A stretch of DNA of 64,000 bases from Candidatus Zixiibacteriota bacterium (GTDB lineage Bacteria > Zixibacteria > MSB-5A5 > GN15 > JACZUZ01). Made by a program: the position numbers and the translations under genes. This document shows positions 22,271 through 60,927 of this stretch, piece by piece. Within the stretch, counting starts at the first letter, position 1. Every line of letters begins with the position of its first letter. The DNA lies in assembly GCA_024280835.1 (NCBI GenBank), contig JAJRPJ010000018.1:69537-133536 (forward strand). The letters run 5' to 3'. Under the pieces are notes generated by a model, which was given only the letters and a program-made list of their open reading frames with translations, was not told the origin of the DNA and made no database searches.

Positions 22271-22315
22271 ACAACAAAAAGGAAGGCCGATTTGATTAAA
22301 TCAAATCGGCCTTCC
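22271..22315 (-). terminator. Rho-independent terminator after the BNR-dockerin gene
   Basis: On the minus strand: GGAAGGCCGATTTGA-TTTAA-TCAAATCGGCCTTCC (perfect 15-bp stem) followed by TTTTTGTTGT, 87 nt after the stop at 22402. Confidence 0.8.
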
Positions 22316-22401
22316 CACTGTAATGTATTACAGTCTAGCTCATAACATTGAGCGTCAACTGAATGGGTATCATTGCTACAATACCCTTTTTGTAATTCCT
22401 A

Positions 22402-46700: not shown

Positions 46701-49700
46701 GAATCATCTGTGGCGATGAATATCACCAAGTAACTTCCACTTTGTGTGAATGTCGGTGTCCAATCGAATGTGGCAGTGCCGTTGCCATTGTCGATAAAAG
46801 CAGCTCCCGTCGGCGCGTTTGAAACGCTGAGCGCTGGAACGGGACCGTCTAAATTCGTAGCCGTTAGCGGCAAATTCAAATTGATACCCTCAGTAACACT
46901 TTGCGGTCCAATAATCGCCAAAACTGGTAGCTGATTTCCCGCATCGACAACTGTGATTGAAACTATTTCGCTGTCGTTCAATAAACCATCGGAAGTAAAG
47001 AAGGTCACATTGTATACACCAGACTGAATGAAGTTCGGTGTCCAATTCAGTGAACCAGTACCGTTAAGATTGTCTGTATAAGTAGCGCCAGTTGGCAATC
47101 CAGTGGCGCTAAGCGTCGGAATCGTCGCATCAGGGTCTATTGCAGAAGTTGCGAATGACAGCGCTGCACCTTCAGTCACACTCTGTGAACCAATTGCAGT
47201 CAAGACAGGGGCTTGATTACCTGCTTCGGTAATTGTGATGGTGACGACTTCGCTATCGATGACTGTGCCGTCGCTTGCAGAGAAAGTAACTATATAGGCG
47301 CCTGCTTGTACGAATGTCGGTGACCAATCAAATGTTCCACTACCATCGGCATTGTCGATAAAGGTTGCTCCCGCAGGTAAAGGGGAGGCACTGACACTTG
47401 GAATTGTACCGTCTGGGTCGGTAGAGTTTATATTGAAATTCAGATTCAAACCCTCGGCCACTCCTTGTGCGCCAATAGCGCTCAAAACTGGCGACTGATT
47501 GCCAGCTTCAAGAACAGTGATTTCGACGATTTCTGAATCGGCCAGCACACCATCGGTGGATATGAACGTCACATTGAAAATTCCCGCCTGATTGAAAGCT
47601 GGCGTCCATGAGAATGATCCCGTGCCGTTCGTGTTATCTGTATAGCTGGCGCCAACTGGAAGGTTTGTTGCATTCAGTGTTGGGATTGTTCCATCTGGGT
47701 CGCTGGCTGATGTCGCAAAAGCCAAGACCGCTCCTTCAGATACAGACTTGATACCAATTGCAGCCTGAACTGGCGCCTGATTCCCTGATTCAAAAACATT
47801 GATACTTACGATTTCAGAATCCGTAGCCAGACCATCACCAGCAAAGAAAGTCACACTATAAGAGCCAGCTTGAGTAAAATCTGGTGTCCAACTGAATGAA
47901 CCAGTCCCATCAGCATTATCAATATATGTAGCGCCGCTTGGTAGCGCAGAGGTCGTCATAACTGCGATCGTAGAATCCGAATCGGTGGCCGCTGTCGCAA
48001 AGGAGAGGTTCACACCTTCTGTAACTGACTGACCGCCAATAAGCGACAGCGCTGGAGTATGATTGCCAAACTCAGTAACTGTAATAGAGACAATCTCTGA
48101 ATCTAATCCACCGGAACCATCTGCTGCAAAGAACGTGACTGAAAAAGCGCCAGACTGGTTGAATAGTGGCGTCCATGAGAAACTACCCGTTCCATCACCA
48201 TTATCAGTGAAACTTGCTACGCTCGGCAATGCGTTAGTTGTCAACACTGGTATTGGTCCATCTGCATCTGCCGCAGAAACGATAAATGCCAGATTGCTTC
48301 CCTCGACAATCGCTTGCGGGCCAATGGCCGTCAGAATTGGCGCTTGATTAACATTGGTAACGGTTATAGCAACTATCTCAGAATCAGTAGCGGCGCCATC
48401 AGTTGCAAAGAAAGTCACATTATAAAGGCCAGCTTGAGTAAAGTCTGGTGTCCAACTGAATGATCCTGTGCCATTCAAATTATCCGTGTAACTAGAACCA
48501 AGTGGCAATCCTGTTGCGCTCAATGTCGGTGTGGTGCCATCGGCATCACTTGCAGTTGTTCCAAATGATAGAAGCACATTCTCATTGACGGCTTGTGCGC
48601 CGATAGCCGCTTGTACTGGAGCTTGATTAACATTGGTAACGGTTATAGCAACTATCTCAGAATCAGTAGCGGCGCCATCAGTTGCAAAGAACGTCACATT
48701 ATAAAGTCCAGCTTGAGTGAAGTCTGGCGTCCAGCTGAATGAACCCGTGCCATTCAGATTATCTGTGTAACTAGAACCAAGTGGCAATCCTGTTGCGCTT
48801 AGTGTCGGTGTGGTGCCATCGGCATCACTAGCGGTTGTTCCAAAGGATAGAAGTACATTCTCATTAACTGCTTGTGCGCCAATCAAAGCCAATACCGGAG
48901 CTTGATTAACATTCGTAACTGTAATAGCAACAATCTCAGAATCGGTAGCGGCGCCATCACTAGCGAAGAAGGTCACATTGAAGATTCCAGCTTGAGTAAA
49001 GTCTGGCGTCCAGCTGAATGAACCAGTGCCATTCAGATTATCTGTATAACTAGAACCAAGTGGTAATCCTGTTGCGCTCAATGTCGGTGTGGTGCCATCG
49101 GCATCACTGGCGGTTGTTCCGAATGCTAGAAGTACATTCTCATTGACTGCCTGTGGGCCGATAGCCGCTTGTACTGGAGCTTGATTCACATTGGTAACTG
49201 TAATAGCTACCACTTCAGAATCAGTAGCGGCGCCATCAGTTGCAAAGAAAGTCACATTGAACACACCAGCTTGAGTAAAGTCTGGTGTCCAACTGAATGA
49301 TCCTGTGCCATTCAAATTATCCGTGTAACTAGAACCAAGTGGTAATCCTGTTGCGCTCAATGTCGGTGTGGTGCCATCGGCATCACTGGCTGTTGTGCCA
49401 AAGGATAATAGTACGTTTTCATTGACTGCCTGTGGGCCGATAGCCGCTTGTACTGGAGCTTGATTCACATTGGTAACTGTAATAGCTACCACTTCAGAAT
49501 CAGTAGCGGCGCCATCAGTTGCAAAGAAAGTCACATTGAAGATTCCAGCTTGAGTGAAGTCTGGTGTCCAGCTGAATGATCCTGTGCCATTCAGATTATC
49601 TGTATAACTAGAACCAAGTGGCAATCCTGTTGCGCTTAGAGTCGGTGTTGTGCCATCGGCATCACTAGCTGTTGTGACAAAGGATAATAGTACGTTTTCA

Positions 49701-50377
49701 TTGACTGCCTGTGGGCCGATAGCCGCTTGTACTGGAGCTTGATTCACATTGGTAACTGTAATAGCTACCACTTCAGAATCTGTAGCGGCGCCATCAGTTG
49801 CAAAGAAGGTCACATTGAACACACCAGCTTGAGTAAAGTCTGGTGTCCAACTGAATGATCCTGTGCCATTCAGATTATCTGTGTAACTAGAACCAAGCGG
49901 CAATCCTGTCGCGCTTAGAGTCGGTGTGGTTCCATCGGCATCACTAGCTGTTGTGCCAAAGGATAATAGTACGTTTTCGTTGACTGCTTGCGAACCAATC
50001 AAAGCCAAAATTGGAGCCTGATTGACATTGGTAACTGTAATAGCAACCACTTCACTATCGACAGCCAGCGAATCGTCAGTCGCGAAGAAAGTCACACTAT
50101 AAACACCTGATTGCAAGAACGTCGGTGTCCAAGACAACGAACCAGTGCCGTTAAGATTATCTGTAAAGACCGCCCCAGTCGGCAGGGCGGAAGTTGTCAG
50201 CGCTGGAATTGATTCGATATCACTAGCAGAGATTACAACCGAGAGCAGAACGTTCTCAGATGTAGCTTGTGCGCCAATCGGACTTAGCACGGGCAAATTG
50301 TTCGCCTGCGCTAAAGCCTTTGCCGAAATCAAACAAAACACCAGCCCTGTTAAAAGCGCTATTTTTTTGATAAACAT
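34775..50377 (-). CDS. Giant (5,200 aa) secreted protein: ~52 cadherin-like/He_PIG repeats + FN3-like domain + two unknown C-terminal modules. No dockerin and no T9SS CTD.
   Basis: One uninterrupted 15.6-kb ORF. Signal peptide MFIKKIALLTGLVFCLISAKALA. Repeat unit as in the 2139-aa protein. C-terminal tail (289 aa) LDWSPITLD...HYVIYRG...YFYVIEAVDGFGRRS (FN3-like) followed by duplicated modules. Confidence 0.9.
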   Translation of the reverse strand: MFIKKIALLTGLVFCLISAKALAQANNLPVLSPIGAQATSENVLLSVVISASDIESIPALTTSALPTGAVFTDNLNGTGSLSWTPTFLQSGVYSVTFFATDDSLAVDSEVVAITVTNVNQAPILALIGSQAVNENVLLSFGTTASDADGTTPTLSATGLPLGSSYTDNLNGTGSFSWTPDFTQAGVFNVTFFATDGAATDSEVVAITVTNVNQAPVQAAIGPQAVNENVLLSFVTTASDADGTTPTLSATGLPLGSSYTDNLNGTGSFSWTPDFTQAGIFNVTFFATDGAATDSEVVAITVTNVNQAPVQAAIGPQAVNENVLLSFGTTASDADGTTPTLSATGLPLGSSYTDNLNGTGSFSWTPDFTQAGVFNVTFFATDGAATDSEVVAITVTNVNQAPVQAAIGPQAVNENVLLAFGTTASDADGTTPTLSATGLPLGSSYTDNLNGTGSFSWTPDFTQAGIFNVTFFASDGAATDSEIVAITVTNVNQAPVLALIGAQAVNENVLLSFGTTASDADGTTPTLSATGLPLGSSYTDNLNGTGSFSWTPDFTQAGLYNVTFFATDGAATDSEIVAITVTNVNQAPVQAAIGAQAVNENVLLSFGTTASDADGTTPTLSATGLPLGSSYTDNLNGTGSFSWTPDFTQAGLYNVTFFATDGAATDSEIVAITVTNVNQAPILTAIGPQAIVEGSNLAFIVSAADADGPIPVLTTNALPSVASFTDNGDGTGSFSWTPLFNQSGAFSVTFFAADGSGGLDSEIVSITVTEFGNHTPALSLIGGQSVTEGVNLSFATAATDSDSTIAVMTTSALPSGATYIDNADGTGSFSWTPDFTQAGSYSVTFFAGDGLATDSEIVSINVFESGNQAPVQAAIGIKSVSEGAVLAFATSASDPDGTIPTLNATNLPVGASYTDNTNGTGSFSWTPAFNQAGIFNVTFISTDGVLADSEIVEITVLEAGNQSPVLSAIGAQGVAEGLNLNFNINSTDPDGTIPSVSASPLPAGATFIDNADGSGTFDWSPTFVQAGAYIVTFSASDGTVIDSEVVTITITEAGNQAPVLTAIGSQSVTEGAALSFATSAIDPDATIPTLSATGLPTGATYTDNLNGTGSLNWTPNFIQSGVYNVTFFTSDGLLNDSEIVSITVVDAGNQLPVLAIIGPQSVTEGINLNLPLTATNLDGPVPALSVSNAPTGAAFIDNGNGTATFDWTPTFTQSGSYLVIFIATDDSLTADSETVSITVNEAGNQAPILSAIGAQSVIEGALLSVSINAADPDLTIPALSVTGLPLGASFTDNTDGTGTLSWTPSFVQAGAYNVTFFANDGALSDSEIVTITVNDAGNQLPVLAVIGAQAGAEGLQLLVNVSASDLDQTTPALSVSTLPSGAAFTDNLDGTGTLDWTPGFVQSGVFNITFFAADGFATDSEIVTVTIVDAGNQLPVLASIGAQIVTENINLTFGTSATDIEGASPTMSATGIPAGASYLDNANGTGTFSWIPDFTQSGNYTVTFFATDDSLAVDSEVVTITVTDAGNQTPVLAAIGAQSILEGTLLSFSIAASDLDATIPTFSALPLPTGASFVDNLDGTGTFSWTPDLTQSGVVNLTFSATDGIATDSEVVAITVIEAGNQLPILASIGAQTVAEGINLNVPVTATDPEGGLPALTTTALPSGATFVDNGNGTGVFDWTPSFVQTGIYSVTFFSTDDSLAVDSEVVTITVTESGNQAPVLAAIGPQSGSEGALLTFATSASDPDGGFPALTASSLPAGATFTDNANGTGTFNWTPTFAQSGTYNVTFFASDGFANDSEIVAITINSAGNQAPVLAAIGAQSVTENVVLAFTVTGNDPDLTTPNLSATSLPAGATFVDNLDGTASFSWTPSFVQAGVYSVTFFASDGVLNDSEVVLITVTEAGNQIPLLATIGSRSTTEGVNLNFSSSATDPDGTIPLLSALSLPTGASYTDNSDGTGVFDWTPDFTQSGTFLIIFVASDGTVSDSETVSITVLEAGNQRPVQLAIGAKSALEGATMSFVVTSSDADGTFPAMTTTPLPIGAVYTDTGDGTAAFNWTPSFTQSGTYSVTFFSSDGLLNDSEIVSITINEAGNQPPVLATIGSQSVSEGVLLSVAISATDPDNINPALSIVGLPAGATFVDNGNGTGSFDWTPTFVQGGSYNVTFRASDGAIVDSEIIIITVTESGNQSPVLAVIGSQNVNEGIALSFVTSATDPDATTPTLTTGPLPTGAIYIDNGDGTAAFDWTPSFTQNGIYNITFFANDGLLSDSEIVTITVNEVGNQSPLLATIGSQFTTEGVLLSLVVTASDPDATIPGLSVTSLPIGATFADNFDGTGTLSWTPGFTQAGVYSVTFKASDGILLDSEIVSITVIEVGNQAPVLSAIGAQSTTEGLSLAFGVGATDPDGTTPVLTTSALPSGAIFADNGNGTGSFSWNPDFAQGGTYNIVFRASDGVITDSETVVITVLEAGNQPPVLATIGARGVLEGANLNFGISASDPDVTIPTLSVTSLPTGATFIDNLDGTGVFDWSPTFVQSGTYFVTFIATDGLSSDSEIVTVSVNESGNQAPILVSIGSKATLEGVNLNFATAASDPDATTPTLTASGLPIGASYIDNANGTGVFDWTPDFTQSGTYAITFFASDGALVDSEVVTISINEAGNQSPIMVAIGAQSVTEGASLAFGINASDPDGTTPVLTSTVLPGGASFVDNGNGTGTLSWSPDFTQSGSYTVTFFASDGILKDSQIVAITVLESGNQTPVLAAIGARSTNEGALLNFGLSASDPDGTTPSFTSSALPLGATLIDNGDGTATFDWTPDFTQSGAYSITFFAGDGLISDSEIVSVVVNEAGNQPPVLAAIGAQSITEGALLSVSITAIDADATIPGLSAVGLPLGAAFVDNLDGTASLTWTPLFTQAGVYSVTIRATDGLVTDSEIVSITVIDAGNQIPVLAAVGPQGTNEGILLSFAVSALDPDSTIPALSIAPIPTGATFTDNGDGTGAFNWTPDFTQSGSYSVTVFASDGVTLDSEIVLITVNELGNQAPILATIGAQSVTEGVALGFAVSASDVDLTIPALSTSLLPLGASFTDNLDGTGSFSWSPTFVQSGSFAVTFFASDGALIDSEIVTITVTEAGNQLPILAGIGAQSITEGLALAIAVSASDTDGIAPTLTTIGLPLGATFTDNLDGTGSLSWTPDFTQAGTFNITFFATDDSLAVDSEIVTVTVFDAGNQNPVLALIGPQSIVEGANLTFGASATDPDGTIPALTATGVPAGASFTDNLNGTASLNWTPTFTQSGSYSMTVFASDGVAIDSEVVSVTVNEAGNQPPVLAAIGSQSANEGVTLSFGISSSDLDGTIPTLSGLPLPSGATFTDNLDGTGTFSWTPDFTQAGIYLVTFAANDGVVVDSEVVSITINSAGNQVPILALIGPQNSNEGVNLNFALSATDADATIPALAAVGLPTGASLTDNLNGTATFDWTPDFTQAGSYIVVFTASDGVAIDSEVVTITINDAGNQAPVLTLIGSQNVTEGATLAFSINAADADGTIPSLNTTTLPLGATFVDNGDGTGAFNWTPDFTQAGGFSVTFRASDGVAIDSEVVTITVLEAGNQAPTLAAIGPRTTNEGVALAVAVSASDPDGSIPALTTSALPSGATFTDNTNGTGAFDWTPDFTQAGIYVVTFFASDGLVIDSEQVTITVNSAGNQAPVLAAIGAQTTTEGILLSFGASATDADGTIPALTTSALPLGATFTDNLDGTGSFSWAPDFTQAGLYSIVFRASDGIVNDSEIVSISVGDAGNQAPVLASIGPRSITENNLLSFIISTSDPDATIPALTANSLPSGATFIDNGDGTGTFSWTPDFTQAGVYSVTFVASDGILDDVEIVNITVLESGNQSPVLAAIGAQAIAENALLSFTVNSSDPDGTFPALTSSALPIGAVYTDNNNGTASFAWTPDFTQAGIYSVTFFASDGVLVDSEVVQITVAESGNQAPVLAAIGSQSSTEGLNLTFGVSATDPDATIPALSVGTLPIGAAFVDNADGTGTFNWTPNFTQSGVYSITFFASDGVALDSEIVTVSISESGNQIPVLATIGPRTTTENISLAFGLSALDADGTIPFFGATGLPLGAILTDNGNGTANFAWIPNFTQNGVYFVIFTASDGVAIDSETVSITVNEAGNQIPVLSAIGAQSVNEGANLNFAITAVDPDATIPTLTTSTLPTGATFVDNGTGSGTFDWSPSFVQAGVYSVTFFVSDGLLIDSEVVSITVNSAGNQAPVLAAIGPKGVSEGANLNFGISATDADATIPTLSATNVPLGATFTDNGDGTGGLDWTPNFTQSGTYVVTFFASDGIVSDSEIVTISVSEAGNQAPVIALIGAKSVTEGAALNFVVSVTDADGTIPPLTTSALPAGASFIDNGDGTGAFSWNPTFVQAGVYSVTFGASDGVLTDSEVVAITVIEAGNQLPVLAAIGAQTVAENVALGFALSATDAESIPTLTTTALPTGASFIDNGDGTGAFNWTPTFTQSGVYSVTFYATDVSLAVDSEIVTITVTEVGNQLPVLAAIGAQTVSENVALNLALSATDAETIPVLTSSALPLGATFVDNADGTAAFSWTPTFTQAGIYSVTFFATDAVLAVDSEVVVITVTESGNQLPVLVTIGAQSILENNALNVAISATDAESTPTLSTSALPTGATFVDNADGTGALSWTPTFLQSGVYNVTFFATDASTAVDSEIVTITVIEAGNQSPVLVAIGAQSIPENTLLSFIVSASDAESIPALTTSALPSGATFNDNGDGTGTFNWTPTFTQAGIYNINFFATDDSLAASGETVTITVVEVGNQLPILAFIGSQSVSENVTLNFPVSATDQESTPILTTTALPIGAVFTDNLNGTGSLTWTPDFTQAGIYSVTFFATDDSLAVDSEVVSITVVEAGNAAPPLAVADLSALIALDAMQLDWSPITLDTGGLATTVDHYVIYRGTSAYFTPTALDSIGFTGTATITFTDNNIGGGNVIGDTLVQYFYVIEAVDGFGRRSALSNRVGEFDYQIVVTSTTNFNLIAIPFANTGITTADQLISAIGSSNVLTLNNFVAASQSFESRFAAGFGVNFAVSVGGIYQVNASVNTVFSIAGAIPAPGAVSYPIITTATNDFNFLMIPFERQVDFSVAQDIINNVPGTLNTVNNFVAGSQSYQSRFSAGFGTNFPVTPGKPYQANAAANGSFPSP
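35645..50302 (-). repeat. Array of ~52 tandem 91-97-aa cadherin-like/He_PIG coding repeats (aa 26-4911)
   Basis: Periodicity was read from the protein. The count is estimated from length (4,886 aa at about 94 aa per unit). Confidence 0.85.
48356..50029 (-). repeat. Six near-identical 279-bp (93-aa) tandem copies at the 5' end of the giant gene (repeats 2-7)
   Basis: The unit NVNQAPVQAAIGPQAVNENVLLSFGTTASDADGTTPTLSATGLPLGSSYTDNLNGTGSFSWTPDFTQAG(V/I/L)(F/Y)NVTFFATDGAATDSE(V/I)VAITVT occurs six times. 49142-49260 is letter-identical to 49421-49539, and the first 81 nt recur at 49700. Confidence 0.95.
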
Positions 50378-50417: not shown

Positions 50418-53129
50418 CTACTTCAGCAGAATCATTTTCTTTGTATCACGTTTCGTAGCGCCGACCATTAGTCGATATAGATAAATGCCTGTCGCCACTG
50501 AACTACCATTTGAATCACGTCCGTTCCACTCCACTGTATATTCACCTGGAGCCTTAGGACTTTCAACTAAGGTATTAACCCTTTGGCCAAGAATATTGAA
50601 AATATCCAAACGTACGTCCTGAACCTTACCACCATCTGCATCAACACCAATCGAATACGAAATTGTGGTGGTGGGATTAAATGGATTCGGATAGTTTTGT
50701 TTCAAAGCGAACGTTTCCGGCAAAACAACTTCCGCCAGCGCTTCTGTTTCAATTCTAGCGCCATTCGGGCTCGCGAGCGTAACATTGCTCAGCGTAATAT
50801 CGTCTTCAACGGAATTCGCTGACATCAAAGCCGGAATCCGCAGTATCTCAGATAGACCTTGTGGAATCAGAGTCTCTGTGTTCCAAGGCGAACTATTGTA
50901 AATCACCACTCGCATTGTTCCTGCACGGTCATTGTTATAGCGCAAACGGTACTTACTAGATATGTCGGTCAATTCTGGCGGTAGTACAGAGACTGTGGAA
51001 GGATTATAGTCGATATGGAACTCTATTCCAGCGACATCCTCTGGGAAATCTCCGAACATTGAAACATTGCTCCATTCGCCAGTCTTAATATCAGCTGGGT
51101 CTAATTCAACACTAGCCAACTGCCCACCTGAAACTGGGGCTGGTCCTGGGATAATCGGTAATCCAAAAATGAGATTGTTGATACCGACAAGATCGATAAC
51201 ATCGACTGTATCGTTCAATGATACATCGGCTGTGGCGAACTGACGCGCTGGCAAACCGAAGTTTCCTATGATATAGGCCACGACATTAACAAGATCAGCA
51301 ACATCAACAAGCTTATCGAGGTTTACATCACCGAAACGATCGACATCAATAATTCCTGGAAGCGTCAGCAATTGCACAGAACCAATTGCAGGATTTGGAT
51401 CAATTGACTCTCTACCATTCAGAAGAATCATATCGTAAGTTCCTGGCAAAGCTGTCGAATCAATGCGTAGCACAATTTGCAGAACCGCAGAACTAGCATC
51501 AGGTATGATCGCTTCATTATTGAGACCAAGTGTCACAACACGAATCAAACTGTCATTCATCGCCAACCAATCGACAATGAAGGTTCCTGTTCTGGTGGTT
51601 GTGATAATTGAATCTATTTCGATTTGACGATGTGGATACATCAAGTCAAACTGCACACCAAAAACGCTGTCTTTCAAACTGATCAAATCAATCGGAAACA
51701 AAACTGGATTGAATCCTGGAATTCCACCTGCTGGTGACATTTCTCTCACCGAAGTGGTAAAGAGCTGATCAAACTCAAGCTTTTCGACTGTGATAGTAAC
51801 CGAAACAGTATTAGAAGCATTGCCACCAGGATTATCAGTCGCGTTAAAAGAGACTACAAACGAACCAGATTGATTCAAAGTCGGCGTCCAACTAAACGAC
51901 CCACTAGCGGCAGCCGCGCTGGGAGTTGAATTGAAAGTGGCCCCTGATGGCAGATTCGACGCTGTGATAGTGATAACATGTGAAGCGGTGTCGTCAGTTC
52001 CATTAACGCTAAACGACACCAGCTCACCTTGCTTGACTGTAATTACACTAGGTGTAACTTGAGAAATAACAGGCCCATGCCCAGCAGTCTGTATTGCTGT
52101 ATAAGTACAATTCCCATTTCCGTCACAAACTCCAGGGAGTTTGAAACCAGTTGGAGGAGAAGTACACTGAGTTGATGATGTACAAGTCGGGATGGCTGTA
52201 TAAACACATTTGTTACCCACACATGCCACCGTAAAACCACTAATTGGCGCACAATTGCTAGCTCCTGTACACTCTACATTATCAAGCAGCGTATCTATCT
52301 TGAAAAATCCACTCGCCAATACTGGCACCTGCGAAAGAGACAAAACCTCTTGCGTGGTATCAAATGTAACCACCCAGTTTTGAGCGGTAGCAACCAGAGC
52401 GCAAGAAAGTTGAACAGGAGGAAACACTGTTGTATCTATTACTGGTAAATGAAGCAATGTCACTGGGCTGAGTGTCCCGACTGGTAAGTTCGTAGGTCTG
52501 ACCACAAACTTGACGCGCGCGATTTCACTGTTTCCGCCAAGAATAGAATCCAGAGCAACTGTTTCACCAGCAATTTTCGAGAGCCATTGAATCTTCAGAA
52601 TACTACTATCACGAACCTTTACCGAATTTGAACGAAACAAATCAATCGTATCAATGACTTGGAAACCGTTAACAAAGATGGTTCGAGTCAAAGCTCCACG
52701 ACCCGTTTCACGAATATCCAACCTGTCGACTATGACCGTGTCAACTGTGGTATCTGGTGGGATGACAGTATTATTTATGCTAGTGTCAATTACGGTATCT
52801 GAAAAAAGAAGCGGAATCAGTAAAGTTGAGTCATACCGAACATTCGCAGTCAGCCCCAAGAATGTAGAATCAGCCTTCAAGAATAGCGGCATCTCAACAG
52901 TGTCACCTGGCATACCTTGAAAACTAAGAATTCGCATCGTATCTGGCACGAAGGTGTTATAATTGACGCCTTCGACACATTCGAATATCTGCGCATTCGA
53001 CACTCGCGGCATAAATAGGGCAAGTAGGATTACTAATAGGGGTAACAGCGTTTGTCGCAGTCTCATTTTATACCTCAAAGTATCAGTCATGGTGTCTTCG
53101 TATTTATTGTTTCCGTTGATGACAGTCAT
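50418..53129 (-). CDS. Scaffoldin-like protein: cohesin-like 1, Cys-rich linker, He_PIG, cohesin-like 2, dockerin, cohesin-like 3, T9SS CTD (probable start ATG 53066)
   Basis: Signal peptide MRLRQTLLPLLVILLALFMPRVSNA. Cohesin-like motifs GMPGDTVEMPLFLKADSTFLGLTANVRYDSTLL, VLFPIDLISLKDSVFGVQFDLMYPHRQIEI and FPEDVAGIEFHIDYNPSTVSV. Dockerin GDVNLDKLVDVADLVNVVAYIIG...ADVSLNDTVDVIDLVGINNLIFG. CTD FALKQNYPNPFNPTTTISY...GIYLYRLMVGATKRDTKKMILLK-stop. Confidence 0.85.
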   Translation of the reverse strand: MTVINGNNKYEDTMTDTLRYKMRLRQTLLPLLVILLALFMPRVSNAQIFECVEGVNYNTFVPDTMRILSFQGMPGDTVEMPLFLKADSTFLGLTANVRYDSTLLIPLLFSDTVIDTSINNTVIPPDTTVDTVIVDRLDIRETGRGALTRTIFVNGFQVIDTIDLFRSNSVKVRDSSILKIQWLSKIAGETVALDSILGGNSEIARVKFVVRPTNLPVGTLSPVTLLHLPVIDTTVFPPVQLSCALVATAQNWVVTFDTTQEVLSLSQVPVLASGFFKIDTLLDNVECTGASNCAPISGFTVACVGNKCVYTAIPTCTSSTQCTSPPTGFKLPGVCDGNGNCTYTAIQTAGHGPVISQVTPSVITVKQGELVSFSVNGTDDTASHVITITASNLPSGATFNSTPSAAAASGSFSWTPTLNQSGSFVVSFNATDNPGGNASNTVSVTITVEKLEFDQLFTTSVREMSPAGGIPGFNPVLFPIDLISLKDSVFGVQFDLMYPHRQIEIDSIITTTRTGTFIVDWLAMNDSLIRVVTLGLNNEAIIPDASSAVLQIVLRIDSTALPGTYDMILLNGRESIDPNPAIGSVQLLTLPGIIDVDRFGDVNLDKLVDVADLVNVVAYIIGNFGLPARQFATADVSLNDTVDVIDLVGINNLIFGLPIIPGPAPVSGGQLASVELDPADIKTGEWSNVSMFGDFPEDVAGIEFHIDYNPSTVSVLPPELTDISSKYRLRYNNDRAGTMRVVIYNSSPWNTETLIPQGLSEILRIPALMSANSVEDDITLSNVTLASPNGARIETEALAEVVLPETFALKQNYPNPFNPTTTISYSIGVDADGGKVQDVRLDIFNILGQRVNTLVESPKAPGEYTVEWNGRDSNGSSVATGIYLYRLMVGATKRDTKKMILLK

Positions 53130-53177
53130 CAGTTTAACGGCTTACGTATTTGAGTGTCAATCTTCATCATATTCATA

Positions 53178-55280
53178 TTACTTCAAAAGCGTCATTTTTC
53201 TTGATTGTGCATATCCGTTGGCAGTCAAACGATAAAAGTACATTCCGCTAGCAACTGTCGAACCCTGTTCATCAGCTCCATCCCAGCGTGCGACATAGTC
53301 GCCAGACTCAAATGTTCCTTGAGCCAATGTCCGGACAGTTCTACCGAGGATATCATAAATGACCAATTTGACATTGGCCTGATTCGACAACGAATAACGT
53401 ATCTCAGTTGTCGGGTTAAACGGATTAGGATAGTTTTGCTCAAGCTCAAATGCTGTTGGCAAAACCACTGAGCCAGACTTCACCAAATTCGCTTGAAGGG
53501 TAGCGCCTTGTGCGCTCGCTAACTCTACAGCGACAAGCTCTAGCTTTTCAAAATCAACGCTGCTATTCGTCGAAACGAACAGAGCCTCGGAAAGACTCGC
53601 CGAGTTTTCATTTGAAGATCGATCGTAAGTAACGCTCTTATAGATCAAGGCCCTAAGAGTATCACCACTCTGATGTAATTTGACCTCATAACCATTCGGC
53701 AGACCGCCTTCATCAAACTTCAGTGACCGAAGAACACCATCAGCTTGAGCGACAAACGTCAACAATGCGCCGCCAACAGTGGTAGCGCTCGTTTCATACT
53801 CATTATTAGAGCTGAAACGGACAACGGCTTGATTTTCTTGACGTTCAAAAAGCACATTAATTTCGGTTGAGTATCCAGGTGCAATTCTTGGATTTGCAGC
53901 GCCATCGCCAAGAACTATCGAGAGCAATGTCACAAGATCAGCAATGGATGCCACAATACCGTCAGAGTTGACATCCGAATTGGCAAATTGCTCCGCGTTG
54001 AATCCAGACCTCACTGGATCAATAAAGTAATTTGTGAATCGAAGAGCATCGGCGACCTCAAAAGGCACGCCATTGAGATTGATGTCGCCACGTGTAATAT
54101 CTGACTGATTGACTATTTTAACACCACCGCTAGTGAACACTATGGAGTCTGAGACAATTACGCTGCCCGCCGTATCTATTAGTGTATTTGAGGCTGGTGG
54201 AGCAAAAGGACCAAAGCCAAAAATTACTGGCAGAAATAGACCCGCCAAATTGTTTTCAGAAGACACAAAGAAATTGATGGTGAATAAAATCCCGTCGCCT
54301 GGAGGGATAACTCCCGCTCCATTTGGACTTGATGTATTTGCGATGCCTACAACTTTCAAATCACCAGGGGACGGAGATCCCAACTGAAAGGTTAGTGACT
54401 CGAAATCTGAGGTCCTGGCAGTCTCATTGAAAATAGATATGAATGCCATCACACTTGGGTCATAATGCAATTCAAACTCGAACCCAGAAATCGACTTACG
54501 GTTTGTTAGTAAAACTGGGATTGAAACGACTTCACCTGGAAACGCTGTGTCAACTGCAATAGTAACCGAAAACGGAGCCCCAATCGAAACTACTACTGTA
54601 GCGCTAGCGCTAACAGAAAGCCCCCACTGGTCTGTGGCCGTTAGCACAATTGTATTCGAACCACTATCTGCTTGCTCTGGCGCCCACTTCAAATCTGCTG
54701 GGGCAGGACCGTCTGCGTTGCGCAACAAAAGTCCAGTTGGAGCTGCAGCCATTGACCACGTTATCTTGTCTTGATCAGGATCAAAAACTGTCGGCTGGAT
54801 GTTCACTGTATCCCCAACCTCGACAAAAACAGAATCAACTAATGTAATAATTGGAGCGCGGTTCCTGTTTTGAACGTGGACTACCAGAGCTTCTGAACTT
54901 TGCGATGTTCCGTCGGAGGCGACAAACATCACCGTAAAAGGTGAACCAGCTGAAGAAAGAGGCCCAAGATATTCGGAGGTCCATGAGAAATTCGCTGTGC
55001 CATCACCGTTATCGCTAAAGATCGAACCAATCGGACGCTCAATAGTTGCTAATGACAGAGGATCGCCATCGGCGTCCGCAACACGGACAGTCACTGAGAC
55101 TGTCTGGCCTTCGCTGAGATATACATCCCCCAACGGTTCAATTACTGGCGGACTGGCAGCGCTTACCTGATTTGTAACTAGTAACGAACCCACAGACAAG
55201 AATACCAAAACAACCGCAAGCATAGCCGCAAACCTAGTCAGCCCAGAAAACTTCATCTCACAGATATGAGATGAGGTCAA
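53178..55280 (-). CDS. Scaffoldin-like protein: 2 He_PIG repeats, cohesin, dockerin, X module, T9SS CTD (probable start ATG 55256)
   Basis: Signal peptide MKFSGLTRFAAMLAVVLVFLSVGSLLVTNQVSA. Cohesin FSVTIAVDTAFPGEVVSIPVLLTNRKSISGFEFELHYDPSVMAFISI...GDGILFTINFFV...FTSGGVKIV. Dockerin GDINLNGVPFEVADALRFTNYFI...SDVNSDGIVASIADLVTLLSIVLG. CTD FELEQNYPNPFNPTTEIRY...GMYFYRLTANGYAQSRKMTLLK-stop. Confidence 0.85.
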   Translation of the reverse strand: MTSSHICEMKFSGLTRFAAMLAVVLVFLSVGSLLVTNQVSAASPPVIEPLGDVYLSEGQTVSVTVRVADADGDPLSLATIERPIGSIFSDNGDGTANFSWTSEYLGPLSSAGSPFTVMFVASDGTSQSSEALVVHVQNRNRAPIITLVDSVFVEVGDTVNIQPTVFDPDQDKITWSMAAAPTGLLLRNADGPAPADLKWAPEQADSGSNTIVLTATDQWGLSVSASATVVVSIGAPFSVTIAVDTAFPGEVVSIPVLLTNRKSISGFEFELHYDPSVMAFISIFNETARTSDFESLTFQLGSPSPGDLKVVGIANTSSPNGAGVIPPGDGILFTINFFVSSENNLAGLFLPVIFGFGPFAPPASNTLIDTAGSVIVSDSIVFTSGGVKIVNQSDITRGDINLNGVPFEVADALRFTNYFIDPVRSGFNAEQFANSDVNSDGIVASIADLVTLLSIVLGDGAANPRIAPGYSTEINVLFERQENQAVVRFSSNNEYETSATTVGGALLTFVAQADGVLRSLKFDEGGLPNGYEVKLHQSGDTLRALIYKSVTYDRSSNENSASLSEALFVSTNSSVDFEKLELVAVELASAQGATLQANLVKSGSVVLPTAFELEQNYPNPFNPTTEIRYSLSNQANVKLVIYDILGRTVRTLAQGTFESGDYVARWDGADEQGSTVASGMYFYRLTANGYAQSRKMTLLK

Positions 55281-56390
55281 TCCAGTCAGCTGTCCAGTTG
55301 GACGCAGATTGTTTGATTTGTTCGATAGGAGTTGTTCGATTCGAGTTTTCAGCGCAATCGCTCTTTTCTATTCTTTCGTTACTACTCTTGCTTTGTAAGC
55401 AGTAGCTGCGTAATCAATAACATTGTAATCACTTGGCGATAACTATCAGGGTCAGTGCAGCTTCGCCAGCTTCTATTCTCTTTGCTATAATCTCTATTTT
55501 GGACTCCTGCCAGAGAGAACCTTCGTACGACAAACGCTCTGGTTAGCAATAATCAAATCCAGAGCGACTTACGGCAAATCCTCCAATTCCGTTTGAGCAA
55601 TAAGCAGACCAATCTGCCATACTATCGAAGGTGGAAGAGTATCCTGTTCAATTGTCGCACAACCATTTCGGATCATGGGTAGGTTCAAAACCCGAAATAC
55701 GATTATAAACGGAAAATCCTTGTCCAATAATCGCTTAAGTCAGAAAAACGGCCTTTCCCACTGATAAACGATGGCCGATAATGGCCAAACAACAGGTTGA
55801 AGCTCGTTTCCTCGTTAGCTGAGTCCTTCTGACGACATTAGGTATACGTGAGGCGGTAAGGTATGAAACGCAAGTAATACAGATTATTACACTGTCATAC
55901 GCAAGACACGCAAACAATTGCGCGTTTAGCTAACGTCTATGCTGCATTGCTTTACTCCATTTGCAATCTTCGACGTTGCTTCGGCGCCTAAACTTCCAGT
56001 CTCGGTTACGATACACATCAATATCACCCTCAGGTGGTGGCCTATTCCCTACTTATTGTGACACTAGAACCAGGATTCCTGATAGGATCTTGCTGACGGA
56101 TGTGCGAGGGAAATCGTATCCAACTGACCTGCGAATAATATACTACTTATCCACATTTTCGTCAAAGGTTTTCGCGCCTCTTTCAGGACTAAATTGACTC
56201 ATTTATCCATTTGACACTGTAGGTCTTAACTATATTTCACCAACCTCTTTTTCACAGACAATGTCAGTCGACATTTGTCAATAAACCAGCAGGTTCGCTC
56301 TTAGCTATTTCTTAGCTATTAAGGAGTTAATCTTCAGATGGGGGAAAACGACGGTAAGGCAGTGATACTATGAATCATCGTGAGACGCTT

Positions 56391-56434
56391 AAAATAAAAG
56401 TCCCAACCGAGGGAGGAAATCCTCCCTCGGACGG
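56391..56434 (-). terminator. Rho-independent terminator after the 893-aa gene
   Basis: On the minus strand: TCCCGTCCGAGGGAGG-ATTT-CCTCCCTCGGTTGGGA (10-bp perfect core plus outer pairs) followed by CTTTTATTTT, 20 nt after the stop at 56454. Confidence 0.75.
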
Positions 56435-56453
56435 GAAATAAAGCAAGAAATGA

Positions 56454-59135
56454 CTATTTTACAAGAGCCAATTTCCGTGTTGCTGTGTACTTGCCACCAG
56501 CAGCAGAAACCTTATAGAAATAGATTCCTGTTGACTGACTAGCAAGATCAACATCAATACTTACCAAACCGGCTTCATGCTCACCAGTGATATCACGTAC
56601 GAGCTGACCAGCGACGTTATAAATACGAACTGAGTATTTAGCGGCTTCTGGGAGATCGAAAGTGATCTTGGTGTTAGGATTGAATGGGTTCGGGTAATTC
56701 TGGTAAACGGCAAAACTGGTAGGAATGACGACGTCGAGACCAGGTGACAAAGCGACACCATTGTAGTCTGCGGCTTCGACAGAAACCAATGTACCTTCGG
56801 AAGAGACGACATTACCAGCGGCAATGACTTCTGAACCAACGTTGAATACCAGTGCGTGGGTGTTGCCATCGACAACACCAACTTCGATGTCCATATTGGT
56901 GGCAAGAAGAGTTACATCAACTTCACCCTCAAATACGAACAACGCAGCGCCCATCTCAACGCTTGAAGAAACAACACCACTCTTAGAAGTGATGGAGATA
57001 GCTTCGGCGTTATGAGCGAGTTTCGGTAAAGGAAGAGCATCACCGACGATGACACGGATCAAATACACCAAGTCAGCGACAGTTAACGGAATTCCATCAC
57101 CATTAACTTCAGATGCGGCAATCGAACCCTCAATGTGGGTACCGAAAGCTGAGAGACCAGAAACAAAATAGTTGGTCAACATTGTCGCATCCGCGATCTC
57201 GTTTGAGAGACCGTTCAAGTTGATATCACCGCGTGCATCAATTTCTTCCGCACAGATAATTCTGATACCACCGTTTTTGTAATCAACAAAACGGATCGGA
57301 GCGCCTTTAGGCGTAGCAACATCACAATCATCCGGTGCGCCTGTGAAGGTCGGGAATGACTGATCAGCGCCAGTGATATTCGAACGGAAACCACTGACGA
57401 CGTTATTCATGTCTGTACCGATGTAGTCAAAGACGTTACGGCTGACATAAAGGGTGTCACCACCAGATGACGACAGTGAGTTATCACCGCAGTCAATCCA
57501 GCACCAGCGAATCGCTGCAAACTGACATTCGAGATTACGATCGTTTGAGACCAAGAATGTCAAACAAGCAAAGTCATCACCAACGACCAACAAATTGTTG
57601 TTCGGGTGAGCCATGCCATCATTCTGCTCAGCAAGACCGATTACACGAAGCTTACCTGAAGGACAACCACCTGTGCAGTTACCATTCGGGCCGAAGCGAT
57701 AGGTAAAGTACTCCCACGCGTAATCCGCGAAAATATTACCTTCCGTCGCGCCAACAAATGAAAGCGCGCTGTTATCATAAGAAATCAAGAAATCAAAACC
57801 ACCAAGTTCATTCGAACCGCCGTCATAGTTAAGGCAAACCTCAACCTGATGGCCCTGCAAAGAACCACCCAATGGGTCGGTCTTGTCAGTCTGGTCAATG
57901 CTGACACAGAAAGGCTCGGTGAACAATACAGTGATTGTCATGGTGCACTCGACTGTTTCAATACCATCTGTAACTGAGAGGGTAATGTCATAGTCAGTAT
58001 CAGCGCCAGCAGCGTCGGAATTGTCAGCAGCAAATGTGACAGCGCCTGTTGTAGGATCAACAGACACGGTACCAACTGGAACTGGTGCAACACTTACGAG
58101 TGAGTAAACCAAAGCATCACAAGCGTCAGCATCGGAACCGTTAGCGGCCGGAGAAGTACCAGAGTTGCCTTTGGCAACTGCGATATTCGGTGGGCAAACG
58201 AGAGCCGGAGTGCTATTTGTGACTTCAACATTAACAACACAGTCAGCGTTCGGGCCATCTGGCTCGGCGCCATTGACTGTAATTGTGATAGAACCATTCT
58301 CACCAGCGCCTGGAACGTATGAAACGTTACCAGAACCGTCAACAGAAACAGTACCTGTACCGGTAGTTGTCGCTGAATAGGTAATTGGCTGATTTTCTGG
58401 ATCTGGATCGGTGAGCGTAATCGAGAAATTCAAAGCATCACAATGATTGGTGCTTTCTGATGTTGTATTGCCAGCATCACAAACCGGATCTTGATCCGGA
58501 ATTACAAAAGCAGTGACACAAAGAGCGTTGTCGCGTGAACCGCCAACACTAAGATCACCACCACCACCTGACCAGCCAGTTGCGGCGGCAGGTGACATCA
58601 ACCACTCACCACTTGGTGGGAAGAAAGCGGAGTCAATACAAAGAATACCGCCGTCAATACCAGGAAGAGTGAATGAGAATTTAAGACCATCGGATAAGGC
58701 AATTGGGCCATAACCGGTTCCAGCCGCTCCAGAGGATACACCACCGGAGAGCCATGTGCTTGGCAATGAGCCACTGAAAGCATCAGCGCCCAATGTCAAT
58801 TTAGCGCCACCAAAATCCCATGTGGCATTGTTACCCCAGACACCAACGCCTATAGCAGGCGGTGTTACCCATGTGATGTTAGTAAGTGAGCCATCTGGGC
58901 TATAGATAATAAAGCCCATCGTGGCGCCAGTTACATTAACATCAGACTCAAACTGCACTGTGTACTCATAGGTACTGGCATGTCCGACTTGGAAATCAAG
59001 TCCGTTTCCAGATATATCTGGGAAAGTTGGCCCGTTTGTTATTGACACCGCAGCGCCAGTCTGAGCCAAAGCATTTGACCCAAGAGCAAATAACATACAA
59101 GAAGCCAATACAAGAGTAAGTAATTTACGACTCAT
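56454..59135 (-). CDS. Scaffoldin-like protein: N-terminal domain, Ig/cadherin-like modules, cohesin-like, dockerin, X module, T9SS CTD
   Basis: AGGAG SD. Signal peptide MSRKLLTLVLASCMLFALGSNALA. Cohesin-like HQVEVCLNYDGGSNELGGFDFLISYDNSALSFVGATEG...FVDYKNGGIRII. Dockerin GDINLNGLSNEIADATMLTNYFVSG...SEVNGDGIPLTVADLVYLIRVIVG. CTD FAVYQNYPNPFNPNTKITF...GIYFYKVSAAGGKYTATRKLALVK-stop. Confidence 0.85.
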   Translation of the reverse strand: MSRKLLTLVLASCMLFALGSNALAQTGAAVSITNGPTFPDISGNGLDFQVGHASTYEYTVQFESDVNVTGATMGFIIYSPDGSLTNITWVTPPAIGVGVWGNNATWDFGGAKLTLGADAFSGSLPSTWLSGGVSSGAAGTGYGPIALSDGLKFSFTLPGIDGGILCIDSAFFPPSGEWLMSPAAATGWSGGGGDLSVGGSRDNALCVTAFVIPDQDPVCDAGNTTSESTNHCDALNFSITLTDPDPENQPITYSATTTGTGTVSVDGSGNVSYVPGAGENGSITITVNGAEPDGPNADCVVNVEVTNSTPALVCPPNIAVAKGNSGTSPAANGSDADACDALVYSLVSVAPVPVGTVSVDPTTGAVTFAADNSDAAGADTDYDITLSVTDGIETVECTMTITVLFTEPFCVSIDQTDKTDPLGGSLQGHQVEVCLNYDGGSNELGGFDFLISYDNSALSFVGATEGNIFADYAWEYFTYRFGPNGNCTGGCPSGKLRVIGLAEQNDGMAHPNNNLLVVGDDFACLTFLVSNDRNLECQFAAIRWCWIDCGDNSLSSSGGDTLYVSRNVFDYIGTDMNNVVSGFRSNITGADQSFPTFTGAPDDCDVATPKGAPIRFVDYKNGGIRIICAEEIDARGDINLNGLSNEIADATMLTNYFVSGLSAFGTHIEGSIAASEVNGDGIPLTVADLVYLIRVIVGDALPLPKLAHNAEAISITSKSGVVSSSVEMGAALFVFEGEVDVTLLATNMDIEVGVVDGNTHALVFNVGSEVIAAGNVVSSEGTLVSVEAADYNGVALSPGLDVVIPTSFAVYQNYPNPFNPNTKITFDLPEAAKYSVRIYNVAGQLVRDITGEHEAGLVSIDVDLASQSTGIYFYKVSAAGGKYTATRKLALVK

Positions 59136-59721: not shown

Positions 59722-60927
59722 CTATTGGAGGCAACATCCATTTGGCCCAGACCCACCTGTAAATATCCAAGCAATCATATATGTGATGTCTGCAATGTTG
59801 AATTTGCAATCACCATTGGGATCCGCCCCCAGATTGCTTTCAACTCCACCACAAGTTGGAGCAGCCCCGCCAGTAAATACCCGAGCAATCATAAACGTTA
59901 CATCCGCGATATTTTTCTTATTGTCATCATTGACATCACCGCAAATACACTGAGGTTGTGCAAGAATCGTCAACGAACCGTCTGACAAAAACACTTTCGT
60001 AGTATCCAAATGACCGACAAGAATAGTGTCAATAGAGGTTGAATCAAACGGTGGGGTCGGTACGCGAATATAACTCAAGCAATTAAATGGAGAGAAAGGA
60101 TTCCATTGTTCGCAAAACCAGAAGGCGGTATCCTCAACTGAATCGGTCACAATACCAATTGAGTTTCCCAGCTCATCAGAGAATGAGAAATTATTCAAAG
60201 TAGAGGAAACAATCCGCATTGTCACTGTACGGTCTGTCGCTGTATCATCTAGGATAACATCAGCTAACAGCTTGATAAGCACACCGTCCGTCTGCGGTCC
60301 AAAACCAGGAGTTTGTGGCAAAGCCGCCTGATTTGCCAAGGCTGATATCTTAATATCAAAACCCTGACCTCCAAGTGAACGAGCGTCAACAAACTCCCAA
60401 CCCGACATTAGCGTCCCAGAGGTATCGAAACTACCGAGAATAATTTCCAAATCCGCAACATGCAGAAAATCATAGGGATTAGTTGTAAACCAATCGTATC
60501 CCAAAGTAGTGTCGGCAACTTCTATAGAGTCCAAACAATTTGGTGGCACAGCGCCAATCGGATTCTGACATGACCAATAACGAATAGTATCGAAAACTTG
60601 AATCGAGTCAGTGCAGGCCGGAAAAGCCCCCGCCAAACAGAGCCAGAGAGTGGTATCGGGAATAGTGTCTATATTGGTTTTGAAAACGATCACGTCAGGT
60701 CTGTCAAGCTGTATCCAGAGCTCAACACCTGCGACCGTATCAGAGAAGTTGTCGACAAAGATGGATATGACAGCGTTTTGGGTGTTCGGCAATGCAACAG
60801 TGTCAATCACATCCACAACTAAAGCTGGCTGCGCCTCAACTCGGGTGACTCCCAAAGTGAACGTTAGCCCTAAGGTCGCCAATAAGGCGCAAAACCCTGC
60901 GGATAGTGAGTGGTTCATTCGTCTCAT
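59722..60927 (-). CDS. Secreted adaptor-like protein: cohesin-like module + C-terminal Cys-bracketed dockerin
   Basis: AGGAGA SD. Signal peptide ...LGLTFTLGVTRVEA. Cohesin-like VVDVIDTVALPNTQNAVISIFVDNFSDTVAGVELWIQLDRPDVIVF...GVLIKLLADV...VFLSDGSLTIL. Dockerin CICGDVNDDNKKNIADVTFMIARVFTGGAAPTC...DPNGDCKFNIADITYMIAWIFTGGSGPNGCC. Confidence 0.75.
   Translation of the reverse strand: MRRMNHSLSAGFCALLATLGLTFTLGVTRVEAQPALVVDVIDTVALPNTQNAVISIFVDNFSDTVAGVELWIQLDRPDVIVFKTNIDTIPDTTLWLCLAGAFPACTDSIQVFDTIRYWSCQNPIGAVPPNCLDSIEVADTTLGYDWFTTNPYDFLHVADLEIILGSFDTSGTLMSGWEFVDARSLGGQGFDIKISALANQAALPQTPGFGPQTDGVLIKLLADVILDDTATDRTVTMRIVSSTLNNFSFSDELGNSIGIVTDSVEDTAFWFCEQWNPFSPFNCLSYIRVPTPPFDSTSIDTILVGHLDTTKVFLSDGSLTILAQPQCICGDVNDDNKKNIADVTFMIARVFTGGAAPTCGGVESNLGADPNGDCKFNIADITYMIAWIFTGGSGPNGCCLQ

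Follow-up and report, generated by a model that had tools for sequence, protein, structure and literature searches.

A Cohesin-Dockerin Cassette Ahead of Type IX Secretion Tails in Predicted Surface Proteins of Candidatus Zixiibacteriota

A stretch of 64,000 nucleotides from Candidatus Zixiibacteriota bacterium (assembly GCA_024280835.1, contig JAJRPJ010000018.1, positions 69,537 to 133,536; hereafter the window) encodes three paralogous proteins of 903, 700 and 893 residues (p903, p700 and p893), each of which ends in the same series of modules: a cohesin (Coh), an internal dockerin (Doc), a module here called X, and a type IX secretion system (T9SS) C-terminal domain (CTD). Profile comparisons and predicted structures identify this cassette as Coh-Doc-Coh-like-CTD, X being a second, degenerate cohesin-like module. 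Judged by its relatives in sequence collections, it is a family-wide pre-CTD module of Zixibacteria, Ignavibacteria and Calditrichaeota that follows many different passengers. The identity of the modules and the family-wide occurrence of the cassette are held with high confidence. How the proteins work is a more tentative matter. The reading preferred here, to which as a complete mechanism we give slightly less than an even chance, is that p903, p700 and p893 are anchoring scaffoldins on the outer membrane, belonging to a non-cellulosomal display system built on cohesins and dockerins, in which the internal dockerin would form a core packed in cis and the terminal dockerins of other proteins would bind in trans.

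Module Architecture of the Three Proteins

The three open reading frames (ORFs) all lie on the minus strand, at 50418-53129 (p903), 53178-55280 (p700) and 56454-59135 (p893), positions that were verified. Their N-termini, read off the sequence, are alike in resembling signal peptides. The longest p700 ORF, of 700 codons, starts at TTG, and an in-frame ATG lies at codon 9, eight codons downstream. The reading from this ATG opens a more typical signal peptide (MKFSGLTRF...; MKFSGLTRFAAMLAVVLVFLSVG). p893 is identical to the database protein P0047, and neither p893 nor p700 (from either start) has a record in the contig index. Sequence comparison places the paralogy of the three proteins far above chance: in blastp, residues 62-700 of p700 align with 238-893 of p893 (E 4e-33) and residues 199-700 with 414-903 of p903 (E 2e-26). 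The modules were located with hidden Markov models (HMMs) termed external, as they were built from unrelated or other family members only. These models put the modules at nearly the same residues as the first-pass annotation, made from the sequence alone, which had drawn them at 236-390 (cohesin), 397-458 (dockerin) and 610-700 (CTD) in p700, at 405-628, 633-699 and 806-893 in p893, and at 455-593, 594-656, 670-800 (X position) and 805-903 in p903. Its claim that three paralogs share the order cohesin, dockerin, X and T9SS CTD is thus borne out by the ORFs, blastp, the HMMs and the TIGR04183 matches given below, and the pairwise alignments of p700 with p893 and p903 extend over the whole region.

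All three proteins end in a T9SS type A CTD. In p700 (53181-53432; aa 617-700) TIGR04183 scores 41.2 bits against a cutoff of 23 and PF18962 scores 30.1 against 27; in p893 (56457-56696; aa 814-893) the two models score 45.7 and 42.1 bits, and in p903 (50421-50693; aa 813-903) TIGR04183 scores 26.2 against 23. Every TIGR04183 match is above the cutoff and ends within 10 residues of the C-terminus. The three are predicted to be Sec-exported, T9SS-sorted surface proteins.

The cohesin ahead of the dockerin passes the Pfam Cohesin model (PF00963) in p700 (54108-54575; aa 236-391), with 38.3 bits against a threshold of 24.1, and is matched there by the external cohesin HMM at 2e-19. Two AlphaFold2 (AF2) models, both of p700, were made from alignments of 46 and 32 sequences. 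In the model of the whole cassette this module is a nine-stranded jelly-roll beta-sandwich that Foldseek superposes on solved type I cohesins with template modelling (TM) scores of 0.75-0.86 (target-normalised) and root-mean-square deviations of 2.3-3.2 A. The p893 module (57243-57914; aa 408-631) falls under the Pfam threshold (18.2 bits) and is matched by the external HMM at 2e-76; like most family members, it has an insertion of about 70 residues with Cys. At the level of the family, a profile from a 13-sequence cassette alignment matches 28 solved cohesins, the best being the non-cellulosomal cohesin of Archaeoglobus (2xdh, 3.5e-7) and 3ul4 (4e-7). Single-sequence searches of the PDB with p903, p700 and p893 gave FlgD/CTD matches and weak cohesin matches only, so that profiles were needed. 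The weakest case is the pre-dockerin module of p903 (51351-51764; aa 456-593), which the first-pass annotation had called cohesin-like 2. Neither Pfam nor the external cohesin HMM matches it directly, its profile matches no solved cohesin in the PDB, and its hhalign match to the family cohesin is weak (15%). The module falls inside the blastp alignment of p700 with p903, and its homologues in P0167 and P0179 (41-48% identical) match Pfam Cohesin with 35.6 and 28.8 bits; p903-type relatives pass the Pfam model in both positions, with 28.7-44.4 bits. On these matches of its relatives, it is probably a cohesin homologue.

The internal dockerins of p700 (53904-54095; aa 396-459), p893 (57036-57242; aa 632-700) and p903 (51162-51341; aa 597-656) share a duplicated segment with the Asp/Asn ligand pattern, and the external dockerin HMM matches them at 8e-22, 9e-35 and 1e-3, respectively. 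All three miss the threshold of Dockerin_1 (PF00404; 22.9 bits), with 16.0 bits for p700, no match for p893 and 22.1 bits for p903. The predicted calcium loops of p700, GDINLNGVPFEVAD and SDVNSDGIVASIAD, are both 13 residues long, as are those of p893. The patterns in the two proteins, GDINLNGxxxE[IV]AD and SDVNxDGxxx[ST][IV]AD, keep the Asp/Asn ligands and hold one inserted residue each, and when they are aligned to solved dockerins by HMMER, each loop shows an insertion of one residue. Because this residue makes the loops 13 long, Pfam misses the dockerins of p700 and p893. The loops of p903 have the canonical 12 residues, and its dockerin matches the family dockerin in hhalign at 96% (E 9e-9). 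A profile of the dockerin and X together (Doc-X; 32 sequences) has seven matches in the PDB, all of them dockerins (4dh2_B at 2e-4, 3ul4_B at 0.023). In the AF2 model of p700 Doc-X, helices at 19-30, 39-43 and 56-67, with a predicted local distance difference test (pLDDT) score of about 90 or higher, form the expected three-helix fold. The top 50 Foldseek matches of this model include no dockerin chain, the larger X module dominating the list. Across the family, 206 of 215 internal dockerins have a 13-residue first loop. By its 13-residue loops and the fixed spacing on both sides described below, the internal dockerin is, at the level of sequence, a distinct class. The cohesin and dockerin identities proposed at first pass are supported at the level of homology, the former by profiles and by the predicted fold of p700, and the latter by a profile whose PDB matches are all dockerins and by a predicted structure.

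The X module lies at 53481-53864 in p700 (aa 473-600), at 56748-56996 in p893 (aa 714-796) and at 50724-51101 in p903 (aa 677-802), and is covered by neither Pfam nor NCBIfam. The external X HMM matches p893 at 3e-21, p700 at 1e-5 (497-600) and p903 at 7.5e-5 (689-796). In the p700 model, X is predicted as a nine-strand cohesin-like beta-sandwich. The Foldseek leaders of the Doc-X model are almost all cohesins, together with CBM2 and CBM3 (E about 3e-5, TM 0.4-0.49), and the best match of the whole p700 cassette is the cohesin dyad 3l8q over 426 columns, which lays its first cohesin on the p700 cohesin and its second on X. The p903 module aligns with the family X in hhalign at 97% (E 2.5e-11), and its profile matches solved cohesins weakly (5g5d_A, 1e-3). 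Pfam Cohesin gives it 12.9 bits, and scores the same module of the relatives P0169, P0170, P0173 and P0174 above threshold, at 29-44 bits. The link between X and cohesins is drawn from this p903-type subfamily and from the predicted structure only. On the combined profile and model evidence, the X of p700 and p893 appears to be a more degenerate copy of the cohesin-like module behind the p903 dockerin. The first-pass annotation had recognised a cohesin ("cohesin-like 3") at the X position of p903, a call supported by the hhalign match, by 5g5d_A and by the Pfam scores of the relatives. It had left X unassigned in p700 and p893, where a homologous, cohesin-like module is now recognised throughout.

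Distribution of the Cassette

When 1.84 billion cluster representatives were searched exhaustively with the profile, 4,271 of them matched the cassette at E<=1e-3 and 1,191 at E<=1e-30. Coverage was inspected for the best 150 representatives, whose matches mostly span the full profile and end about 85-90 residues ahead of the C-terminus. A second, word-indexed homologue search with the profile added four further proteins only. Architectures were parsed with the module HMMs in the best 160 relatives, that is, the 150 best representatives and earlier matches. A single Coh-Doc-X with the CTD motif was found in 84 of these 160, and 22 had the single cassette without the strict motif. Many others have two or three cassettes, and some carry extra cohesins; P0016 and P0028 have four cohesins without an adjoining dockerin, and P0009 and P0043 have Doc-X repeats without a cohesin. 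The passengers include Big_9, PKD, HYR, He_PIG, VWA, a peptidase_C39-like domain and LTD, and in the cassette proteins with these passengers Pfam finds no cohesin or dockerin at E<=1e-5. Where the source organisms of cassette relatives are named, they are Zixibacteria. Complete Coh-Doc-X-CTD ORFs occur, besides Zixibacteria, in metagenome-assembled genomes (MAGs) of Ignavibacteria (loci L004-L006) and Calditrichaeota (L007). The genome scan, made with the 32-sequence Doc-X profile, was dominated by the QNYPNPFN motif of the tail, and about 11 of its 80 loci were informative. The view that the conserved module order is functional, first argued from three paralogs, is supported far beyond them by the 84 single cassettes, the arrays and the near-invariant connectors.

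Cassette genes are often arranged in tandem. Three adjoining cassette ORFs lie in a Zixibacteria chromosome (OY760907.1, L009), and two each in L002 and L024, so that the paralog array of the window represents a recurrent arrangement.

The Internal Dockerin as a Putative Cis-Packed Core

The internal dockerin is held at nearly constant distances from both of its neighbours. Counted from the last-strand motif of the cohesin to the dockerin GD[IV]N, the spacing is 13-15 residues in 136 of the 139 cassettes that could be scored, 115 of which have exactly 14; this leaves about 8 residues of connector past the last cohesin strand (AF2 strands). The dockerin-to-X gap has a median of 12 residues (5-95%: 7.5-16). 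A cohesin stands ahead of 195 of 219 dockerins and a detectable X behind 170 of 219, and most of the dockerins without a detectable X are followed by X-like sequence below the HMM threshold. A comparison of the window with its syntenic counterpart in Zixiibacteriota Dive100_bin1.56 shows the dockerin to be the best-conserved module in all three ortholog pairs (89-95% identity against 44-87% for the other modules). For p700, the identities of dockerin, cohesin, X and CTD are 89, 58, 44 and 69%; for p893, 94, 82, 66 and 63%; for p903, 95, 87, 71 and 84%; the adjoining HDOD protein is 67% identical to its ortholog. In the family alignments, the putative recognition positions of the dockerin are nearly invariant.

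The AF2 model of p700 residues 236-700 (465 residues) has a mean pLDDT of 87 and a predicted TM-score (pTM) of 0.68, and that of Doc-X (235 residues, about 30 of them disordered) has a pTM of 0.81. By rough arithmetic, independent domains would be expected to give about 0.43 and 0.54, respectively. As the values obtained are higher, the models seem to treat Doc-X, and probably Coh-Doc-X, as a single rigid body. In the mechanism that we favour, the internal dockerin would accordingly not be a free plug: it would be packed in cis against both X and the terminal part of the upstream cohesin and would make the cassette a rigid, probably Ca2+-stabilised stalk. This packing is suggested by the AlphaFold confidence, the fixed connectors and the pattern of conservation. 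Judging from the geometry of solved complexes, the connector, with its 8 or so residues, seems too short to let the dockerin reach the canonical binding face of its own upstream cohesin.

An alternative, which we consider doubtful, is that the internal dockerin binds the cohesin or X of another molecule, producing head-to-tail chains or a homo- or heterotypic lattice on the outer membrane. Each protein carries both a cohesin and a dockerin, tandem cassette genes and multi-cassette proteins are common, and the dockerin is the best-conserved module, with recognition positions whose near-invariance could make all cassettes mutually compatible. Dockerins moreover have two symmetric faces, so that one could be packed in cis while the other binds in trans; their dual binding mode has been reviewed (PMC12484212). 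This polymerisation is nevertheless somewhat disfavoured, because a trans plug requires neither short near-invariant connectors nor obligate Doc-X pairing, AF2 predicts a compact monomeric unit, and the terminal dockerins discussed next look like real plugs in both the locus and the family. The linkers of scaffoldins, in contrast to the connectors of the cassette, are long and variable.

Terminal Dockerins and the Proposed Display System

Three further proteins of the window, encoded in one minus-strand gene island with the cassette genes, have signal peptides, lack a CTD and carry a canonical terminal dockerin with 12-residue loops. The secreted protein p401 (59722-60927) ends in a dockerin at aa 329-389 (nt 59761-59943; Dockerin_1 18.9 bits, threshold 22.9). 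In p361 (33644-34729) the dockerin spans aa 275-331 (nt 33737-33907; 30.9 against 22.9 bits), and in p2139 (27228-33647), a giant Ig-repeat protein with Big_9, He_PIG and PKD repeats, aa 2077-2130 (nt 27258-27419; 40.2 bits). By their sequences, these canonical (class A) terminal dockerins on CTD-less proteins are a second dockerin class. Among the relatives, nine CTD-less proteins with cassettes or extra cohesins end within 15 residues of a dockerin, which in at least seven is canonical, with tails of the G-x-P-x-C type. These CTD-less proteins look like adaptor scaffoldins.

The p401 gene has a conserved place. Locus L001 has the order HDOD, p401-like, p893-like, p700-like, p903-like and giant protein; L002 (Zixibacteria) has p401-like, p893-like and p700-like genes, and L007 (Calditrichaeota) has p401-like and p893-like genes. 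In L001, L002 and L007 a p401 homologue is the gene immediately upstream of a p893-like gene, which together with the window makes four genomes of two phyla. In L002 and L007, blastp matches p401 at 2.8e-35 and 1.5e-51 and p893 at 1.9e-154 and 2.8e-158, and p700 is matched at 3.7e-83.

In the mechanism proposed here, the CTD would route each cassette protein through the T9SS and leave it on the outer membrane, by analogy with characterised cargo. An exposed cohesin face, of either the N-terminal cohesin or X, would then receive the class A dockerins of p401, p361 and p2139, and the CTD-less multi-cassette relatives that resemble adaptors would be further carriers of such received dockerins. 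This reception in trans is suggested by gene neighbourhood and architecture.

The folds could instead have been co-opted, with no recognition in trans, as a rigid Ca2+-stabilised spacer ahead of the CTD, much as other T9SS cargo has Ig-like domains in front of its CTDs. The position directly before the CTD whatever the passenger, the predicted rigidity, the degenerate state of X and the blindness of Pfam to cohesin or dockerin in most members are all in keeping with such a structural role. It would leave without explanation the class A dockerins of the CTD-less neighbours, which need a cohesin partner, and would account neither for the p401-like/p893-like pair kept across phyla nor for those relatives in which several extra cohesins have no dockerins to match them. 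Since terminal dockerins need partners, we regard a purely structural role as unlikely.

Several points weigh against an anchoring scaffoldin with a cis-packed core. The p700/p893-type X profile finds nothing in the family cohesin by hhalign (probability <1%), and the structural likeness of the p700 X to cohesins is weak (TM <0.5). The rigidity of Doc-X, and with it any contact between the modules, is predicted from pTM values and alignments of 32-46 sequences, and strong conservation of the dockerin would fit a universal partner in trans equally well. No T9SS machinery gene was found among the scanned ORFs of the window, and surface attachment after T9SS export is an assumption made by analogy. 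The mechanism also offers no route by which CTD-less dockerin proteins would pass the outer membrane to reach a surface cohesin.

One conceivable answer to this last point is that the cassette cohesins seize the class A dockerins of p401, p361 and p2139 in the periplasm, and that the complex, already folded, then passes through the T9SS together with its CTD-bearing member and is displayed on the surface. Such hitch-hiking would explain how giant proteins equipped with nothing but a Sec signal and a dockerin arrive at the surface of a diderm, and why p401-like and p893-like genes are kept side by side across phyla. We regard it as a long shot, the least probable of the possibilities raised here, and a limited search of the literature gave no account of cohesin-dockerin hitch-hiking for the T9SS.

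Type A CTD cargo is not always kept on the cell and may be released. For this reason the term "cell-anchored", used in the first-pass annotation, is an assumption. If the proteins were freed after CTD cleavage, the cassette might serve to re-attach them to other components of the surface, or to tie cells to one another or to substrates within aggregates or biofilms. Besides the occasional release of such cargo, the adhesin-like Ig, cadherin-like and VWA passengers and the giant Ig-repeat proteins of the locus would suit this possibility. It overlaps with the display system preferred here, as the same cohesin-dockerin contacts would be used, and as a separate explanation it seems decidedly improbable.

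Other Features of the Locus

The passenger region of p700 consists of Ig-like domains (54585-55151, minus strand) above the Pfam threshold, namely Big_9/Cadherin_5 at aa 44-133 and He_PIG at aa 144-232. In p903, aa 47-350 are kept in the relatives P0166 and P0177 and in the L001 ortholog, and Cys-rich repeats (CxxxxxC...C.YT) come next. The N-terminal region of p903, presumably the "cohesin-like 1" of the first-pass annotation, gave a shallow profile without a cohesin match in the PDB. The N-terminal 290 residues of p401 are also Cys-rich and are 86% identical between two Zixibacteria genomes, above any cassette protein or HDOD. This p401 domain begins with a strand pattern like that of cohesins, but its assignment as a cohesin is not supported: the external HMM match is not significant and the shallow profile finds no PDB cohesin.

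On the same strand, a 5200-aa ORF at 34775-50377 encodes a giant secreted He_PIG/Big_9-type Ig-repeat protein without a T9SS CTD. It has no match to the cassette cohesin, dockerin or X HMMs, and it ends in two copies of an unassigned domain, each some 120 residues long. At its downstream end, the surface-protein island (20907-25901, minus strand) includes a 296-aa protein with a T9SS CTD (20907-21797), and ORFs of 933 and 239 aa without a Pfam match.

The gap between p893 and p700 (55281-56453, minus strand) measures 1,173 nt, lacks a conserved ORF and can be aligned to its syntenic counterpart in a Zixibacteria MAG (HDOD 67% identical), with exact runs of 39, 20 and 19 nt. Conserved blocks lie at about 56200-56090, 55930-55840 and 55740-55680, where windows reach 80-90% identity. 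Just behind p893, where the gap opens, there is a hairpin resembling a terminator (CCGAGGGAGG-ATTT-CCTCCCTCGG, then a run of T), and a conserved promoter-like TTGACG-17-TATATT lies at 56165-56137. For p700, the gap is a candidate for a long 5' leader or a non-coding RNA. Rfam gave no match, the metagenome scans yielded no further copies, and blastn over the fetched loci returned L001 only.

Significance

The pairing of cohesin with dockerin is the textbook self-assembly of Gram-positive cellulosomes and a workhorse of synthetic biology. What is new here is that in a large group of uncultured diderms a cohesin, an atypical dockerin and another cohesin, degenerate in sequence, have been joined as a fixed cassette directly before a T9SS tail, that standard domain databases largely miss this Coh-Doc-X cassette, and that it co-occurs with canonical terminal dockerins on tail-less proteins. 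Among the papers that a limited literature search turned up, none describes a fixed Coh-Doc-Coh-like cassette ahead of a T9SS CTD or a dockerin class with 13-residue loops. Were the proposed mechanism true, it would offer T9SS bacteria a general route to multi-protein surface structures and to the display of proteins without an outer-membrane export signal of their own, and it would provide a natural single-chain cohesin-dockerin unit, possibly a source of new orthogonal pairs for protein engineering. The cassette also bears on annotation: in the three phyla, entries named "T9SS type A sorting domain-containing protein" or "FlgD Ig-like domain containing protein" should be described differently.

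Comparison with Known Cohesin-Dockerin Systems

The first-pass annotation had set proteins with both modules against classical cellulosomes, in which scaffoldins would carry the cohesins and enzymes the dockerins. This contrast was overstated: most scaffoldins hold a dockerin besides their cohesins, and adaptor scaffoldins are standard in complex cellulosomes (PMC12484212). Archaeal proteins, too, carry a dockerin together with several cohesins in non-cellulolytic settings, those of anaerobic methanotrophs (ANME) having one dockerin and up to five cohesins (PMC9012536). In Ca. Stygibacter (Cloacimonadota), a predicted CTD-anchored scaffoldin-like protein is accompanied by dockerin-tagged hydrolases (PMC8542988). 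The cassette system itself is not a cellulosome, since neither a carbohydrate-binding module (CBM), in p903, p700 and p893 or elsewhere in the window, nor a glycoside hydrolase tagged with a dockerin was detected. The sole glycoside-hydrolase-like ORF scanned (19218-20660, GH35/42-like) has no dockerin, and the dockerin-bearing neighbours are Ig-repeat proteins or proteins without known identity.

The cassette proteins share with anchoring and adaptor scaffoldins such as A. cellulolyticus ScaB and R. flavefaciens ScaC and ScaH (PMC12484212) a non-catalytic nature, the combination of cohesin(s) with a dockerin, a presumed C-terminal surface anchor, nearby genes for dockerin-tagged partners and a putative hierarchical assembly. 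They differ in that the anchor is a diderm T9SS CTD instead of SLH domains or a sortase signal, and in that the cassette is joined to hundreds of unrelated passengers. The dockerin is moreover internal, lying between two cohesin-like modules on short fixed connectors, and has 13-residue loops.

A second resemblance, the closest as regards a dockerin joined to a supporting module, is to the type II X-dockerin dyad of C. thermocellum CipA and A. cellulolyticus, in which a dockerin is likewise permanently paired with an adjacent beta-sandwich; the pairing in the cassette is predicted to be rigid, and the dyad structures 2b59 and 4wi0 are among the Foldseek matches. The classical X module is Ig-like. 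In the cassette, X is a nine-strand cohesin-like module, the order is Doc-X instead of X-Doc, and a secretion tail follows the dyad. Although the two modules are predicted as a unit (pTM 0.81), this order and the cohesin-like X place the cassette outside the type II dyads.

Like the archaeal cohesin-dockerin proteins (A. fulgidus 2xdh; ANME, PMC9012536), the cassette proteins bear both modules on one chain in a non-cellulolytic setting. The archaeal proteins belong to an S-layer or pseudo-periplasmic setting and are not known to have a T9SS tail, a fixed cassette of three modules or a second, degenerate cohesin. The protein of Ca. Stygibacter (PMC8542988) also comes from an uncultured member of the FCB group and combines cohesins and a T9SS CTD with C-terminal dockerins on secreted partners. 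It differs in having tandem cohesins and CBMs, no internal dockerin, and hydrolases as partners, whereas the partners in the window are Ig-repeat or unidentified proteins. By analogy with these systems, the cassette would work like an anchoring or adaptor scaffoldin with a built-in dyad of the X-dockerin kind, as an analogue of the known classes and not a member of them.

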